DNA from: a virus
Taxonomy: Duplodnaviria > Heunggongvirae > Uroviricota > Caudoviricetes
DNA: 8,018 bases
Reading direction: 5' to 3' (one strand)
Virus record (IMG/VR): IMGVR_UViG_2663763286_000023
The position numbers were made by a program, and so were the translations under genes. The notes under the pieces were generated by a model. That model was not told where the DNA came from and ran no database searches. It saw only the letters and a list, made by a program, of their open reading frames with translations. This document shows, piece by piece, positions 340 through 8,018 of the stretch (its first letter is position 1; every line of letters begins with the position of its first letter).

Positions 340-862
340 TGGTGCGATAACGAAGTGATAGTGACGTTTCTGGCAGGAGTAAAAGCGCCAGATAAATTCA
401 GGGCGTGCGCAAGGATTGGCATTAACCATAGTTACGGCCTCATGTACAGGTTTAACAACCTGCTACCCGCTGCTAAACGGGTGGCAGGACGTGACGGGGT
501 TAGCAGACTGGCGTACATGAAACCAGCAGGCCGAAGCCTCCCCATCACGCCCCACCATAATTCGGGCGTAATGCGGTTTTACGGACATAAAAATACCGCA
601 ATATCGGAAATCTGCGGTTGTCCGCATGTACATTCAGGCTGCTAAACCCGGTCGCAGAATTTGCTACGACGTAGGAACTATAAGCCTGAACAACAGGAAG
701 ATCAATAGTCTGGCGTCCAATAGTAGTTTATTTGTTCCAATAAATCAAATTTATTAGAGCAATAACAATCTAGTTGAATGTTTCCTCTCTGAGGTTGCAA
801 TGTGCACACTTAGTGTCTTATTTGTATGCACTAATAAATATATTATTTTTAATAATAAATAA

Positions 863-900: not shown

Positions 901-963
901 CGCCCGGTACGGATGGATCCCTTTTCAAATATTCCATGGACGGCACAGTCTGAGTACCGGGCG
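901..963 (+). other. Perfect 10-bp inverted repeat (CGCCCGGTAC at 901-910, GTACCGGGCG at 954-963) with a 43-bp spacer
   Basis: Seen directly. Lies in the presumed 5' leader or upstream region of the 1024-1668 gene. Confidence 0.4.
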
Positions 964-984
964 CTACCTTCAGTTGTATTGCTA

Positions 985-1012
985 AGCCGCCGCTGGTGGC
1001 TTTTCTTTTTTG
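985..1012 (+). terminator. Terminator-like hairpin and U-tract (stem AGCCGCC / GGTGGCT with one G-U pair, then TTTTCTTTTTT) just upstream of the ribosome-binding site of the 1024 gene; possible attenuator
   Basis: Stem 985-991 pairs with 995-1001, followed by a T-rich run 1002-1012, then GGGGGAG and ATG at 1024. Confidence 0.3.
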
Positions 1013-1023
1013 TAGGGGGAGCT

Positions 1024-1668
1024 ATGGATAAGAAAATATGCGTTGTTTCGATGAGCGTCGGCAAACCGGCGTCAATGACTGCTGCATGGATCAATAACGA
1101 GCTGATAATGGCTGAGCGGACCAGCTACCCTGAACGCCGCCGCGATATGGAACTCCAGCTGCTGCGCGAATTGCGAGAAAAAGAGGAGAAGGGTTTTATC
1201 GTGCTGGTGGAAGAGGAAAACAGCTTTATTACTGGTCGAGTTGGCCAGCGTGTAAGGTTGCGCGATCCCTTCATGAACGGCAGGCCGGTACTAATTGAGG
1301 CAATGCAGATTTATAAGGAGCTGGAACGCCAGAAAGCAATCAAGTTACCGCGCAAGGAATCCGGCAAATACATCCTCCACCAAAGCATCTTCGATTCCGA
1401 ACACGATAAAAAAGGCGATGAGTTTTTCAACATCAACTGGAGCGAAATAACGACAGAGCATGTTCTGACGTTGTTATGCTGCTTCGCAACAGAATACAAC
1501 AACGTGGTAAGCGCAGACTACATCAGGACAATGACAGACACCATTACTAAACAAGACAACGAATATTCACCATATGAGCCATTTGTAAATATGATAAAAG
1601 CATTTTATCGGATGGAGCTCGCTAAAGTTCCTCAAGGTAAATTAACAGGTAAGGATAACATCTTTTAA
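1024..1668 (+). CDS. Hypothetical protein, 214 aa, no family recognised
   Basis: ATG at 1024 preceded by a GGGGGAG Shine-Dalgarno-like run (1014-1020); stop TAA at 1666-1668. The six-frame ORF extends upstream to a GTG at 877, but that stretch overlaps the inverted repeat and terminator-like hairpin, so the 1024 start is preferred. Confidence 0.55.
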   Translation: MDKKICVVSMSVGKPASMTAAWINNELIMAERTSYPERRRDMELQLLRELREKEEKGFIVLVEEENSFITGRVGQRVRLRDPFMNGRPVLIEAMQIYKELERQKAIKLPRKESGKYILHQSIFDSEHDKKGDEFFNINWSEITTEHVLTLLCCFATEYNNVVSADYIRTMTDTITKQDNEYSPYEPFVNMIKAFYRMELAKVPQGKLTGKDNIF

Positions 1669-1721
1669 GCACAGTAATGAGGTGCTTAGACGTTCATATC
1701 AATATCCTAACTCTCTGCATC

Positions 1722-2411
1722 TCATAAATCTGATAGCCACTTACTATCTATGGACTCAATCTCCGTCAACGGAATTGATGGGAAAAAATATCCTTGAGCG
1801 CCCCATAGCCCTATCCCTTTTAATAACCTATAACAATCAATGTTTTCGACGCCTTCAGCGATGATATTCGGACATAACTTTTTTAAATTGCTAATAATGA
1901 CATCAAAATGAGGCTTAATCATATGCTCTTGCAAAAATGACTTATCAAGTTTTATTGCATGGTATTTATTTTTAATTAATGCTTTCATGGTGGCGTTACC
2001 ACTTCCAAAATCATCAAGCCAAACATTATCTGTCAAAGTCAGTAGAAAGGATATGACGTAATCCTCATCGCTTAAATCAGGATAGTTTTCTGATATCTCA
2101 ATCGCTATAAATTTATTGTTTATTAGTAGCTCTTGAATTTGTTTATTACCATATATATATAAACAGGTCTCATAATCTACATTGATAGAGCATAATATAT
2201 TATGGCATTCAAAAAAACACTTATATTTGATTATTGTGTTAAGTTGAGATGTTAGCAAGTTAATCTTCATCTTGCTTGTAAACATACCTAATACTCTCTG
2301 AGTAGGAAGAATAGCCCCCTCGTTGGAATAAAATCTGCTTAACACTTCCACTGCTATCAACTTGTTAGTGCTTGTGGAAATGATTGGTTCTACTATGTAG
2401 ATAACTTCCAT
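1722..2411 (-). CDS. Standalone EAL-domain protein (c-di-GMP phosphodiesterase family, YdiV/PdeH-like), 229 aa, with catalytic motifs apparently intact
   Basis: Translation contains EVLSR (EAL motif), NVD, IEISENYP, DDFGSG (DDFGTG motif), KLDKSF, AEGVEN (EGVE motif) and QGYFF. ATG at 2411-2409 with GAGGG upstream. Gene is about 30 percent G+C by eye. Confidence 0.85.
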   Translation of the reverse strand: MEVIYIVEPIISTSTNKLIAVEVLSRFYSNEGAILPTQRVLGMFTSKMKINLLTSQLNTIIKYKCFFECHNILCSINVDYETCLYIYGNKQIQELLINNKFIAIEISENYPDLSDEDYVISFLLTLTDNVWLDDFGSGNATMKALIKNKYHAIKLDKSFLQEHMIKPHFDVIISNLKKLCPNIIAEGVENIDCYRLLKGIGLWGAQGYFFPSIPLTEIESIDSKWLSDL

Positions 2412-2647
2412 GCTCCCACCCTCTATTTTTAAATTGCTTGATTTTGCTCAGATAACGAGCCCCCTATATTCACAAGAGTTACACTCTACTTTTGTAGATT
2501 AAATGTCAATTTATTTGTTTGCGATAATATTGAAAAATATCAATTAAAATAATCAACAAATGTGACATAAATCAATAATTTTATTTTTACACAACTTCTT
2601 GATTTCTGAGCCTGGTTATCTCTATTCTTATTCAAAGCCTCTTTAGA
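2412..2647. promoter_or_regulatory. AT-rich divergent intergenic region between the EAL gene and the AraC-family gene; presumed divergent promoters. A weak CRP-like half-site pair sits at 2561-2576 (TGTGA-N6-TCAAT)
   Basis: 236 bp of non-coding, very AT-rich sequence between two divergently oriented starts. Individual promoter hexamers cannot be assigned reliably in such AT-rich DNA. Confidence 0.4.
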
Positions 2648-3382
2648 ATGGTGGTGGCCATGTCAGCAGTTTGTTACTTCATACTCATAAAGAAACCTAT
2701 AAGCTTTCAATTTCTTAAGGATTTCTTGATATTAAATTATGGTGATGTGCTGTTGCTTAAGCATTCTGAGCATGAATGCTTAAAAATGTATTCAGACAAA
2801 TATATAGAATTCGAACTCAATGATAATACCGTAAGAAACTATTTATTATGTAACAACAACCATGGAAACCAATCGCTGGATAAGTGTCCACATTTGCTAA
2901 AAAAGTCTTTTGCCTATCCTGATTTATTAATCAGGATGATCGATAATATAAGCGACCAAAATCATATCCATTCTGATTTTAGGGAGGCAGTAACTTTTTC
3001 ATTACTCTCAATTTTTAATGATGTTGATAACTTTAGAGCATTTCTTACGTCTGGTATGCCCACTTTCTCAGGGAAAGTGCGCAGCATATTTCTTTCAGAT
3101 GTATCTAAACACTGGAAACTAAGAGACCTAACCGATTATCTCTACATGAGTGAAAGTTTAATAAAGAAAAAACTATTACTAGAAAACACCTCCTTCAGTA
3201 AGTTATTACTTGATACACGGATGGCTTTTGCTATTAAATTACTAAAGCAAAATCATCCAGTCAAACAAGTATCAGAAAGCTGTGGCTTTAGTAGTACATC
3301 GTACTTTGTGTGCCTGTTCAGGCAATATTATAATTGCACGCCACGTGAATATGCAAAACATCAGTTATTATCTGGAAAATAA
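2648..3382 (+). CDS. AraC/XylS-family transcriptional regulator, AppY-like (N-terminal sensing or dimerisation domain plus C-terminal double helix-turn-helix), 244 aa
   Basis: C-terminal region SESLIKKKL...TSFSKLLLDTRMAFAIKLL...SESCGFSSTSYFVCLFRQYYNCTPREY matches the AraC-family HTH signature and resembles AppY as recalled. Very AT-rich. An alternative start is the ATG at 2660, which has GGTGG just upstream. Confidence 0.85.
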   Translation: MVVAMSAVCYFILIKKPISFQFLKDFLILNYGDVLLLKHSEHECLKMYSDKYIEFELNDNTVRNYLLCNNNHGNQSLDKCPHLLKKSFAYPDLLIRMIDNISDQNHIHSDFREAVTFSLLSIFNDVDNFRAFLTSGMPTFSGKVRSIFLSDVSKHWKLRDLTDYLYMSESLIKKKLLLENTSFSKLLLDTRMAFAIKLLKQNHPVKQVSESCGFSSTSYFVCLFRQYYNCTPREYAKHQLLSGK

Positions 3383-3420
3383 GATGCATTTATCTCCCAG
3401 ATAATATTGTAATATTAAAC

Positions 3421-3669
3421 TCAGTCAGCATTTAGTAGCAGAGCATTATCTATGATGATCTGCTCCCATTCTTCGAATGCCCGATCGCGGACCCCCTGGG
3501 GAACACTGTTAGTTTTGAAATCGACGACCGTACGCCATTTCCCGTCCGGACGGTACATGCGCAGAGCTTTACTTCCCCCTTCCCTGCGCACCTCAACGTT
3601 ATGCTTGTCAGCAAACTCTTGTAATGCTCGTAGCGTCCCATGCTTTACTGTGTAGTATCGCTTTTTCAA
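3421..3669 (-). CDS. Small basic protein, 82 aa, TTG start; possible HicA/YcfA-like fold (speculative)
   Basis: TTG at 3669-3667 preceded by GGAGAG (complement of 3675-3680) with a 5-nt spacer. No in-frame ATG before residue 38. The segment GGSKALRMYRPDGKWRTVVDFKTNSVPQGVRDRAFEEW resembles the HicA pattern GSH..hPdG..tvP.H...l..Gtl as recalled, but the His positions are replaced. Confidence 0.55.
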   Translation of the reverse strand: MKKRYYTVKHGTLRALQEFADKHNVEVRREGGSKALRMYRPDGKWRTVVDFKTNSVPQGVRDRAFEEWEQIIIDNALLLNAD

Positions 3670-3857
3670 GTTTTCTCTCCAGCCTGTGCCAAGGCTTTGA
3701 CGTCGAAGTTATGTCCTATTCGGTTTTATTGTATCAGATAGTGTGGACATATTATTTCACGTCCGGCGTAGTCGGTCATAGCTTTTGCCTTCCACCTTTT
3801 CCACGCCGTATCTAATCGGCGCCCGATGAAATGTTATTGCACTAATATATTTCAATA

Positions 3858-3882
3858 TTTCGCTGACACTTGAACAGCGAAA
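3858..3882. promoter_or_regulatory. Perfect 8-bp inverted repeat TTTCGCTG-N9-CAGCGAAA, about 100 bp upstream of the portal gene start, between divergent genes; candidate operator
   Basis: Seen directly: 3858-3865 and 3875-3882 are reverse complements. A possible extended -10 (TGtTAAATT) lies at 3930-3938. Confidence 0.3.
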
Positions 3883-3971
3883 CACCACATAGATAGCTTG
3901 TTCATTGGTAATCCTTAACAAGTGACTAGTGTTAAATTCCGTTCAAACATGATGTGAATTGTTCTAATTAA

Positions 3972-6701
<2,730 letters not shown>

Positions 6702-6702
<1 letters not shown>

Positions 6703-6733
6703 CCACCAAAAATAACCCCGGCGGCTGCCGGGG
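6702..6733 (-). terminator. Rho-independent terminator for minus-strand transcripts (antirepressor gene): stem CCCCGGC / GCCGGGG with loop GGCT (6716-6733), followed on the minus strand by a U-tract
   Basis: Perfect 7-bp GC-rich stem. The plus-strand A-tract ACCACCAAAAATAA (6702-6715) reads as UUAUUUUUGGUGGU after the hairpin on the minus strand. Confidence 0.65.
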
Positions 6734-6747
6734 TATCTGAAATCACT

Positions 6748-6775
6748 GGCGGCCGAAAGGCCGCCTTTTTAATTT
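6748..6775 (+). terminator. Rho-independent terminator for the portal-scaffold operon: stem GGCGGCC / GGCCGCC with GAAA tetraloop, followed by TTTTTAATTT
   Basis: Perfect 7-bp GC stem at 6748-6754 and 6759-6765, GNRA-type tetraloop, T5 run at 6766-6770; 46 nt downstream of the stop at 6702. Confidence 0.8.
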
Positions 6776-6777
6776 AA

Positions 6778-7890
6778 TCACTCAGCCGCTACAGGCTTTA
6801 ATAAACCTGCATCGAGCAGTTTACGCGTCAACCACTGCTGGCCTTTACCCGTTAATTGGGGCGTCAGCCGTATCTGGTAACCATCTTCATCATCCAGCAC
6901 CACTTCTTTCACCGTGAAATACCCGGCGTTGATGTATTGCTGGAACGGCACATTTTTACGTCCACCGGACGCTATCAGGATGCCGTTCCCCCGTAACCAG
7001 GCAAACAACGCGTTTTGCTTAAGCCCAACAACCTTTGCAAAATTTCCAATCAGGATCCCCTTGGCCCCTGATACCCGGTCGGCAAAATCGACTTTAGGGG
7101 CGGCGGCCACCAGCTGCTGATTTAGCTGGTGGGCTTTCTGTTCCAGAAGTTGCTTTTGTTCAGCCAACTCGGCAGCCAGGCGCAAAGCTTCGGGAAGCGT
7201 CTGAGGGATTGCGACCGGTTGCTGTTCTTTTTGCCGGAAGTAGCTGTCTTCCAGTTTTTCAAAGAATGCCCATGCTTCATTTGTGTCCACGATCTTAGAC
7301 ATGCGTGCAGCGCCGCGCTCTGTCCAGAGTGTAAGGCTTCTGGCGTTCTTACCAACAGAGTAACTTCCGGTTACTCTGTTCTTAAATTCTCTTAATTTTA
7401 AACCAGTTAGAAGAAAGTAATGCTTACCTTCTTCAAAGCGGTCAAGGTTGCGAGACAAATTGTTGCGAATATTGGCTTCATCGACCCCATACCCTCTAGC
7501 AAGAGTTTCGGTTGTTACGACACGTACTCCCTGCCATTCCAGAACGGGAATTTCATCCGGCTGATTCTGAACAACCACCAGTTCCGATTCCTGAACTGAA
7601 GGTGCATGAATTTTTTCTGATTTAACGTTAGTTGCTTTCATTCTGTGTGCCTCCTTGCGTGCTTCGGCTGCGACGGTTGCGTAATTCAGATGACCCTGTT
7701 CGAGCAGGTATTCGCGGATATCAGACAACAGGATACGGTGAACCGCGTTCTTGTCCTTTCTCCGGTAAAGTTGTTTGGTGATCATGAAGTAGTTGGCAAT
7801 AACGCCTGGTATATCCCTGGTGCTGATACAGGCAGTGTGCTGTTCAATTGCCTCGATCATCTCTTCACGGGTGACTAATGACGTTCTCAT
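6778..7890 (-). CDS. Phage antirepressor (ORF6N/Bro-N-like N-domain plus KilAC/Ant C-terminal domain) with an 83-aa N-terminal extension; 370 aa from the upstream start, 287 aa from the internal start at 7641
   Basis: ORF6N-like segment VVTTETLARGYGVDEANIRNNLSRNLDRFEEGKHYFLL...LTLWTERGAARMSKIVDTNEAWAFF. KilAC-like segment ILIGNFAKVVGLKQNALFAWLRGNGILIASGGRKNVPFQQYINAGYFTVKEV...GYQIRLTPQLTGKGQQWL. Both in-frame ATGs have strong Shine-Dalgarno sequences: AGGAGG 5 nt before 7890, AAGGAGG 8 nt before 7641. Stop TGA at 6780-6778. Confidence 0.85.
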   Translation of the reverse strand: MRTSLVTREEMIEAIEQHTACISTRDIPGVIANYFMITKQLYRRKDKNAVHRILLSDIREYLLEQGHLNYATVAAEARKEAHRMKATNVKSEKIHAPSVQESELVVVQNQPDEIPVLEWQGVRVVTTETLARGYGVDEANIRNNLSRNLDRFEEGKHYFLLTGLKLREFKNRVTGSYSVGKNARSLTLWTERGAARMSKIVDTNEAWAFFEKLEDSYFRQKEQQPVAIPQTLPEALRLAAELAEQKQLLEQKAHQLNQQLVAAAPKVDFADRVSGAKGILIGNFAKVVGLKQNALFAWLRGNGILIASGGRKNVPFQQYINAGYFTVKEVVLDDEDGYQIRLTPQLTGKGQQWLTRKLLDAGLLKPVAAE

Positions 7891-8018
7891 AGCCCCTCCT
7901 GAGCAGAAGCGTTAACAGGGAGGCACCAGTAACTGAGAGAATTGCGCAAATCGGTAGAAAAGCGGGCAGAGAAAATACAGGGAGCATCCGGAAGCTGAGA
8001 ACGTGCCTCATCTTCTGT
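7680..8018. repeat. Direct repeat, copy 2 (identical to 1-339)
   Basis: Same comparison as copy 1. Contains the first 70 codons, ribosome-binding site and upstream region of the minus-strand antirepressor ORF. Confidence 0.95.

Follow-up and report, generated by a model that had tools for sequence, protein, structure and literature searches.

In bacteriophage P1, the maturation control gene mat (P1 positions 2716-3468) and lxc (9750-9998) are separated by the res and mod genes of the EcoP1I type III restriction-modification system plus IS5, and res-mod has been described as the "variable region 1" of low guanine plus cytosine (G+C) content in P1-like phage-plasmids (PMC9603915). Comparative analysis of an 8,018-nucleotide stretch of caudoviricete DNA (IMG/VR virus record IMGVR_UViG_2663763286_000023; the whole stretch is hereafter "the window") revealed that the same slot is occupied by an AT-rich cassette of two divergently oriented genes coding for a stand-alone EAL-domain protein and an AraC-family regulator. 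Described counterparts of the EAL protein include PdeH, a lone EAL domain without a sensor domain whose gene belongs to the flagellar regulon, YdiV (RflP) and STM1697, in which the ligands for metal and substrate are missing and which fail to bind c-di-GMP (the cyclic dimer of guanosine monophosphate; PMC5622320), and the fimbria-linked EAL-only phosphodiesterases of the SfaY/PdeY group, where overexpression of PdeY reduced biofilm according to work cited in PMC5635171. The regulator has its counterparts in YdeO, AppY, and GadX and in Rns, CsvR, and ToxT. The EAL-AraC pair is almost certainly an exchangeable accessory cassette of the P1 res-mod slot, and its EAL protein is probably an active phosphodiesterase.

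The segment 1500-3600 of the window was 100% identical to plasmid p99_1145-3 of Escherichia coli O111:H8, and matches to this query extended to several hundred plasmids of E. coli with sizes of 80-130 kb. The annotation of p99_1145-3 and the comparison with P1 place the window within a P1-like phage-plasmid (genus Punavirus), with the gene order antirepressor/icd, mat, EAL gene, AraC gene, lxc (bof), ulx and darB stubs, prt, pro, and a second icd/antirepressor. Four states of the mat-lxc slot were identified between identical flanks, namely res-mod as in P1, a single PIN-domain gene in pSF26_102-2, no insert in pO111_2 of the O111:H- strain 11128 (a mat-lxc distance of 39 bp), and the EAL-AraC pair. 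All occupants were AT-rich, with G+C contents of 35.7% for P1 res-mod, 34.3% for the PIN gene, and 32.9% for the EAL-AraC cassette. The suggestion of the first-pass annotation that the pair is horizontally acquired cargo within phage-derived DNA was consequently borne out by the variable nature of the slot, and the pair resembles a moron in that it lies between conserved phage genes, is lost or replaced in near relatives, and deviates in base composition. The cassette shares both location and low G+C with the EcoP1I region but differs from it in holding signaling and regulatory genes in place of restriction-modification genes and in having its breakpoint inside mat.

The G+C content was 0.328 at 1669-3420 (n = 1752) compared to 0.496 in the remainder of the window (chi-squared 154.6, p = 2e-35), sliding windows of 300 nt gave 0.29-0.35 across 1700-3400 and approximately 0.5 in the flanks, and G+C at third codon positions was 0.33-0.34 in the island genes versus 0.51-0.63 in lxc, prt, pro, and ant. 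These values confirmed the sharp fall between flanks of about 50% G+C that had been estimated by eye at 1669-3420, and the same held for the converging gene ends (mat stop at 1668 on the plus strand and lxc stop at 3421 on the minus strand) and for the presence of only two genes, in divergent orientation, between them. The left limit at 1669 was nevertheless misplaced. Unsupervised maximum-likelihood segmentation of the entire window with two boundaries gave an island at 1531-3460, and blastn homology of the window with P1, pO111_2, and pSF26_102-2 stopped at 1533 and restarted at 3418-3425. The G+C content of mat changed from 0.488 at 913-1533 to 0.333 at 1534-1668, and a comparison of Mat C-termini showed the last 45 codons to be strongly diverged while still recognizably homologous. 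The true island is a mosaic AT-rich replaced segment at 1534-3424, with the remainder of the window at 50.0% G+C, and it includes these last 45 codons of mat, which came along with the cassette. The breakpoint within mat and the diverged Mat C-terminus therefore indicate that the cassette was exchanged by recombination and not by intergenic insertion.

The EAL protein matched the Pfam EAL profile (PF00563) at 72.1 bits against a gathering score of 31.3 (E-value 6e-20), residues 8-210 covering profile positions 18-233 of 236, and its AlphaFold2 model (predicted local distance difference test, pLDDT, 92.9) returned matches to over 100 solved EAL structures. The ATG is immediately preceded by a strong Shine-Dalgarno-like GAGGGTGGGAG. 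All catalytic motifs were present, comprising EVLSR (E22 and R26), N77, EISE (E105 and E108), DD (133-134), KLD (K154), EGVE (E186 and E189), and QG (Q206). Ten of these 11 catalytic positions were invariant in a 17-member family alignment extending down to SfaY/PdeY at 23% identity, and R26 was nearly invariant. In direct alignment, E. coli PdeH holds all positions but R26 (10 of 11), while YdiV lacks seven (R26, E105, D133, D134, K154, E186, and E189), including the replacement of E105 by L, DD by GN, K154 by M, and E186 by G, all of which are intact in the window's protein. Because every canonical catalytic residue is kept and is invariant or nearly so across the family, this minimal EAL-only enzyme is predicted, with somewhat better than even confidence, to be an active c-di-GMP phosphodiesterase in lysogens, with FlhD binding as a less likely alternative or additional activity.

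The resemblance to PdeH extends to the single-domain architecture and the catalytic positions but not to orthology, as the two proteins are only 26% identical, the window's protein is shorter by about 25 residues at the N-terminus, and its gene is AT-rich and located on mobile elements in contrast to the flagellar regulon membership of PdeH. YdiV and STM1697 share the compact EAL-only architecture and a GN(A/S)T loop with the window's protein, which unlike them retains all metal and substrate ligands. The first-pass designation "YdiV/PdeH-like" was thus appropriate insofar as STM1697 and YdiV are the best matching solved structures and PdeH the best NCBIfam model, but "YdiV-like" wrongly implies a dead active site. 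A review has described E. coli plasmids as carrying EAL-only proteins of the YdiV subclass that it termed catalytically inactive (PMC10333796); if the window's protein was among those meant, its residue pattern argues against inactivity. Since the catalytic site is complete, the label of an inactive protein or of a "ydiV anti-FlhDC factor" is likely a mis-annotation. Compared with the SfaY/PdeY group, with which it shares the catalytic columns of the family alignment and whose fimbria-linked members include relatives of 35-49% identity at the ends of chaperone-usher fimbrial operons, the window's gene has no adjacent fimbrial operon, is paired with an AraC gene, and resides on a phage-plasmid.

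The same divergent pair was identified on IncFII plasmids at 70-73% nucleotide identity, with homology confined to window positions 1713/1719-3364, a stretch that starts at the EAL stop, takes in the spacer, and ends close to the AraC stop. The ratio of nonsynonymous to synonymous substitution rates (dN/dS) was 0.10-0.16 for the EAL gene and 0.08-0.13 for the AraC gene, and at near-saturated synonymous divergence (dS) these values (0.08-0.16 overall) indicate that both genes have long been kept functional by purifying selection. One IncF copy has a chaperone-usher fimbrial operon at a distance of 1.8 kb, and in pETEC_74 of the enterotoxigenic E. coli (ETEC) strain E24377A (L033, NC_009790.1, 8073-14148) the pair, with protein identities of approximately 65% (EAL) and 80% (AraC), abuts the autotransporter toxin gene eatA. 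An uncharacterized araC homolog beside eatA on ETEC plasmids has been reported (PMC6331568). The eatA-adjacent gene of E24377A may be "peaR", a bile-induced plasmid regulator of this strain. More distant relatives occupied similar positions. An EAL relative of 46-49% identity is located 3' of a pap-like operon and 5' of a gene for a serine protease autotransporter (SPATE) and hlyCA, a Pantoea relative has a fimbrial operon on one side and on the other a gene for a TibC-type glycosyltransferase, after which comes a large gene whose family is unknown, the SfaY cluster is found at fimbrial-operon ends, and an AraC relative of 59% identity is adjacent to a K88-type fimbrial subunit gene. Neighboring proteins of unknown function within distant loci (206 amino acids in L018 and 228 in L007) proved unrelated to both cassette proteins.

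Of 80 EAL-only relatives encoded on chromosomes of other species (identity not above 39%), none had an AraC partner within 6 kb, and the pair recurs on unrelated IncF plasmids; the genes are consequently not ordinary core-genome neighbors, in agreement with the first-pass reading. A chromosomal origin in another species was rejected on the same grounds, with the best species-representative relatives not exceeding 39% identity and lacking the partner. The most economical reading is an origin of the pair in adhesin or virulence loci on plasmids, of which it formed the regulatory end, with later capture by P1-like elements.

The AraC protein matched the Pfam profiles HTH_18 (50.3 bits against a threshold of 33.6, E-value 3e-13) and HTH_AraC (37.1 against 26.6), and over its full length the NCBIfam model YdeO (NF007407; E-value 2.7e-44, 151.7 bits, under the cut-off of 348), followed by GadX, HilD, and HilC. 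Identity was 34% to YdeO, 29% to EnvY, and 25% to AppY, under every equivalog cut-off. Among solved structures, CsvR/Rns (1e-20) and the GadX DNA-binding domain were matched by sequence, and in the predicted structure (pLDDT 87.8) the whole chain matched Rns, CsvR, and ToxT while the DNA-binding domain, 38% identical to that of GadX, superposed on it with a template modeling (TM) score of 0.91 and a root-mean-square deviation (rmsd) of 1.1. The fatty-acid ligand R75 of Rns was aligned with Glu in the window's protein in the phmmer alignment. The protein is an activator with two domains, from the class to which regulators of acid resistance and mobile-element regulators of adhesins and virulence belong, and it is an orthologue of none of those named; "AppY-like", as it was first called, gave roughly the right class, although YdeO is the closer relative. 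AppY, which lies in the DLP12 prophage, and Rns also share its AT-richness and location on mobile elements. PatE, PsrA, and PsrB are prophage-encoded AraC-like regulators of enterohemorrhagic E. coli that resemble YdeO and GadX, and they may be comparable to the window's regulator. Elsewhere, IncK/IncB-type plasmids carry a 36%-identical AraC relative (a cluster of 659 member sequences) divergent from a PerC-family regulator, as in pMbl488 (L116, IncK2/Z, 4699-5726), which makes up a further small regulatory cassette of E. coli plasmids. An unannotated remnant of the 3' half of the AraC gene (window positions ~3029-3364, ~81.5% nucleotide and 88% amino acid identity) was also observed in many plasmids of 230-300 kb and some smaller ones from E. 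coli, Salmonella, and Klebsiella.

Among complete genomes of E. coli, 698 records matched the 1500-3600 query, mostly via lxc alone, and the full cassette was present in 126 of them (~18%), the other ~570 plasmids matching on the lxc side and lacking the cassette. By comparison, EcoP1I res was found on 57 plasmids. In PLSDB, 164 plasmids held at least 80% of the cassette and 333 had any match, the latter from E. coli, E. albertii, E. fergusonii, Shigella, Salmonella, Klebsiella, and Enterobacter. The cassette is likewise present in two phage isolates, vB_EcoM-Ro157c2YLVW and Salmonella phage SJ1. The E. coli matches further included 18 places recorded as chromosomal, at least one of which is a P1-like element: the E. 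coli ST2747 chromosome (L117, NZ_CP007393.1, 1-16101) contains c1, a truncated ref, mat, the EAL and AraC genes, ulx, and a frameshifted darB, with an additional GlxA-family regulator and a hydrolase of the metallo-beta-lactamase (MBL) fold near ref, reflecting either integration or an assembly artefact.

Both cassette genes are intact in the window. With a dS of 0.045 to L026, the window's EAL gene is close to that of the commonest P1-like lineage; the window's AraC gene, at a dS of 0.46, is far removed from this lineage, and relative L031 shows the opposite pattern. The common lineage itself carries a one-nucleotide deletion in the AraC gene in which ACATGAGTGA became ACAT-AGTGA near window position 3149 (L026 5634, L028 3279), truncating the protein before both helix-turn-helix motifs; this frameshift is a single inherited event. 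It is consistent with the listing of the EAL gene alone in 11 of 15 sampled PLSDB rows, and the EAL gene was one intact frame in 20 of 25. Insertion sequence (IS) elements were also among the cassette lesions. As the AraC gene is broken where the EAL gene remains intact, persistence of the EAL gene is independent of the regulator and the cassette is dispensable cargo. In view of this distribution, regulation of the EAL promoter by the AraC protein, a possibility raised in the first-pass annotation, could not be obligatory.

The two genes share an AT-rich control region as first described, although the 236 bp initially given assumes a start at ATG 2648; RefSeq annotation and the alignment of homologs favor ATG 2660 and hence a longer region (Table 1). 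Copy number of the (TTTG)n tract differs among the aligned cassettes, and a change of promoter spacing in the manner of phase variation may be speculated. P1-type and IncF-type cassettes are saturated at synonymous sites elsewhere but share a conserved block in this region, which contains the inverted repeat AAATCAA (2569-2575)/TTGATTT (2599-2605) with 23 nt between the arms and a promoter-like TTGATT (2599-2604), 18 nt, and TATTCT (2623-2628) facing the AraC gene, which scored 8/12 and fell just under the scan threshold. Silencing by H-NS is plausible from base composition, as had been proposed, but the high-affinity motif TCGATAAATT was not enriched above chance, with 11 matches in the window compared to 11.1 expected, nine of the 11 being within the island. 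A riboswitch or structured RNA in the control region was rejected, as Rfam returned nothing at E <=1 over 1400-3800 and the 196-nt leader of the EAL gene folded no better than shuffled sequences (z -0.6). Tandem repeats were sought in the island and none were found. The stem-loop between the converging mat and EAL ends is a possible terminator or insulator.

No match to the P1 C1 operator was found by pattern search within 1534-3424. The two matches in the window, against 0.06 expected, were the perfect Omat site and, between prt and the stub of darB, a site at 3836-3852 that deviates from the consensus at two positions. Nothing therefore ties cassette expression to the phage repressor or phage state, and the earlier proposal of such a link was not supported; the flanking phage genes retain repressor control while the cassette has none.

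Taken together, we infer a self-contained cassette of the moron type that entered the mat-lxc slot by recombination within mat and at the lxc end, with two proteins transcribed outward from the shared AT-rich control region and hairpins at both outer ends. The EAL protein, a member of the PdeH/YdiV/STM1697/SfaY group, would most likely hydrolyze c-di-GMP in the lysogen, and the YdeO/Rns-class activator would most likely act on its own control region and on promoters of the host or of co-resident plasmids. The outcome would be lysogenic conversion of the motility, adhesion, and biofilm program, in which lower c-di-GMP would lead to less curli and cellulose and to release of the YcgR brake on flagella. 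Such effects of low c-di-GMP on curli, cellulose, and YcgR are established E. coli biology.

Several observations weigh against this interpretation. In sequence as in fold, the EAL protein is nearest, among solved relatives, to STM1697 and YdiV, which bind FlhD and are catalytically dead; its best NCBIfam model, PdeH (NF008617), was reached at 93.5 bits under a cut-off of 190; and loop 6 reads DDFGSGNAT in place of the canonical DFG(T/A)GYSS, so that the DFG-G core is retained and YSS replaced, although the loop of the active PdeH also departs from the canonical form (DDFGTGMAN). The AraC frameshift was present in 11 of 14 evenly sampled PLSDB rows of the common lineage, and frameshifts also affected the EAL gene itself, both in the lytic isolate Ro157c2YLVW and in about four of the 25 plasmids sampled. 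A sigma-70 promoter scan yielded nine sites compared to 9.3 expected, i.e., not above chance, and because of this result the conserved block of the control region is to be read as a footprint and not as proof of a promoter. Finally, a search of the literature and of database names returned no functional study, gene name, or account of the cassette as P1 cargo. Literature searches likewise returned no paper on phage Ro157c2YLVW or on the protein accessions.

The EAL protein could alternatively be an anti-FlhD4C2 factor of the YdiV/STM1697 type that binds FlhD and switches off flagellar genes in lysogens irrespective of catalysis, a role that could serve immune evasion or the exclusion of flagellum-dependent phages. 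The best sequence matches in the PDB were STM1697 (1e-27) and YdiV (2e-21), followed by the active YahA/PdeL (3e-10), the model superposed best on YdiV (TM 0.88, rmsd 1.9) and on STM1697 (TM range 0.85-0.88 for the two), clearly above active EAL domains (~0.78), and the gene is labeled ydiV in the record of phage SJ1. This closeness of fold may nevertheless simply reflect the EAL-only subgroup because, to our knowledge, no PdeH structure has been solved. The catalytic residues lost by YdiV and STM1697 are retained and invariant here, and the FlhD-contact residues defined in PMC5622320 are mostly not conserved: F155, F168, F181, and A184 of YdiV correspond to I146, F159, H168, and V171, at positions that vary within the family, and F160, L172, L173, K175, and H176 of STM1697 to F159, V171, I172, S174, and N175. 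What is preserved is limited to the generic Phe of EAL domains and to hydrophobic character, with K175 and H176 of STM1697 both replaced, and an anti-FlhD role is on balance unlikely. Cargo for defense or superinfection exclusion, in which depletion of c-di-GMP would strip c-di-GMP-dependent receptors or matrix and shield the lysogen, would suit a slot that otherwise carries a type III restriction-modification system or a PIN-domain gene. It also has a precedent in PdeL, which protects E. coli from phage N4, whose receptor glycan needs c-di-GMP, but plain EAL-only PdeH gave limited protection in the same work (PMC8669472). The EAL, AraC, and Mat proteins matched no PADLOC defense model at E <=0.01, and the IncF copies lie beside adhesins and an autotransporter toxin, outside defense islands, leaving exclusion improbable. 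A catalytically competent member of the otherwise "dead" YdiV/STM1697 structural branch in the restriction-modification slot might act as an exclusion or defense factor that depletes c-di-GMP, or as a trigger enzyme on a transcription factor such as FlhD or its AraC neighbor; this is only slightly less improbable than exclusion alone, and if true, a temperate phage-plasmid would directly reprogram host second-messenger signaling for its own protection or spread.

The divergent pairing, kept across cassettes of only ~70% nucleotide identity, together with the binding of transcription factors by relatives of the EAL protein (PMC5622320), raises the possibility that the EAL protein binds and modulates its cognate AraC regulator in a c-di-GMP-dependent manner, serving as trigger enzyme or anti-activator as in YdiV-FlhD or PdeR-MlrA. 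Such a partnership is hard to reconcile with the reassortment of EAL and AraC alleles among P1-like plasmids, with the intact EAL gene beside a frameshifted AraC gene, and with the occurrence of distant EAL relatives without AraC partner and distant AraC relatives without EAL partner, and it was given the lowest probability of all the readings. Scarcely more probable is a silent hitchhiker in decay that has no current function in the P1 context. The recurrent lesions (the AraC frameshift of the common lineage, EAL frameshifts, and IS insertions) and an AT-rich composition suggestive of H-NS silencing would fit decay, but both genes are under strong purifying selection, the catalytic residues are invariant, the cassette is kept in about 18% of the lxc-bearing E. 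coli records and in plasmids of several other genera, and the AraC frameshift does not represent many independent events.

The features of the cassette and its flanks are compiled in Table 1. To the right of lxc, P1 positions 10027-10390 and 10454-17092 are deleted (window positions 3698-3768 for the junctions, and 3763-3906), leaving stubs; as darB is reduced to a stub, the Dar anti-restriction function tied to it is probably lost in this plasmid. Phage Ro157c2YLVW and L026, which carry the same cassette, retain ulx and at least part of darB. Both ends of the window consist of one sequence, present as a direct repeat no shorter than 300 nt (1-300 and 7680-7979, 100% identical, spacing 7679 nt) that runs to the window ends and is the sole long repeat of the window, none occurring within the island. 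It is part of two icd/antirepressor modules that flank the mat-to-pro segment and share 91.7% identity over 1.7 kb, and the plasmid contains a third copy in inverted orientation at another place (5564-7266, 13240-14945, and 216-1526 in p99_1145-3, L001). One copy is in place of ref, and the insertion point of another lies between pro and the lysis genes.

Table 1. Features of the EAL-AraC cassette and its surroundings (window positions).
Feature	Position	Strand	Basis
P1 C1-operator consensus, perfect (Omat), outside the island	747-763	-	Pattern search, P1 Omat annotation
mat, P1 maturation control gene	913-1668	+	p99_1145-3 annotation; 913-1533 96.5% identical to P1
Mosaic AT-rich replaced segment, 32.9% G+C	1534-3424	none	Homology breakpoints, likelihood segmentation
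Stem-loop between converging mat and EAL-gene ends	1677-1725	+	RNA fold -14.8 kcal/mol, z -3.2 versus shuffles
EAL gene, 229-amino-acid stand-alone EAL protein	1722-2411	-	Pfam EAL
Divergent control region, 248 bp, 29% G+C	2412-2659	none	Sequence; alignment of seven cassette copies
(TTTG)n tract, 2 copies (3 in phage Ro157c2YLVW, ~7 in L031)	2514-2521	none	Seven-copy alignment
Block conserved between P1-type and IncF-type cassettes	2545-2630	none	Invariant columns, seven-copy alignment
AraC/XylS-family gene, 240 amino acids, YdeO/GadX/Rns class; alternative ATG 2648	2660-3382	+	Pfam HTH_18 and HTH_AraC
17-bp AT-rich stem-loop at converging AraC-lxc ends, terminator-like	3366-3406	-	Terminator scan; fold -18.8 kcal/mol, z -4.3
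lxc (bof), P1 modulator of C1 repressor, right conserved flank	3421-3669	-	96.3% identical to P1 9754-10026
ulx and darB remnants	3670-3906	-	blastn versus P1; "SAM-dependent DNA methyltransferase" pseudogene annotated in p99_1145-3

Research on P1-like phage-plasmids, which are common in E. coli, Shigella, and Salmonella, has dealt mainly with their carriage of resistance genes, and the frequency of the EAL-AraC cassette in their res-mod slot at least equals that of the textbook EcoP1I. Both proteins are of well-known kinds, and the slot, its low G+C content, and plasmid-borne EAL-only proteins in E. coli are already in the literature. The cassette would give phage-plasmids a handle on c-di-GMP and, through it, on motility, curli/cellulose biofilm, and some phage receptors, and via the AraC protein it could reach regulons of the host or of virulence plasmids. 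The window derives from a plasmid of the Shiga-toxin lineage O111:H8, and the relatives of the pair link it to virulence loci of ETEC (eatA) and of uropathogenic E. coli. The cassette is a testable candidate for lysogenic conversion by a phage-plasmid, one that extends known themes and opens no new one.

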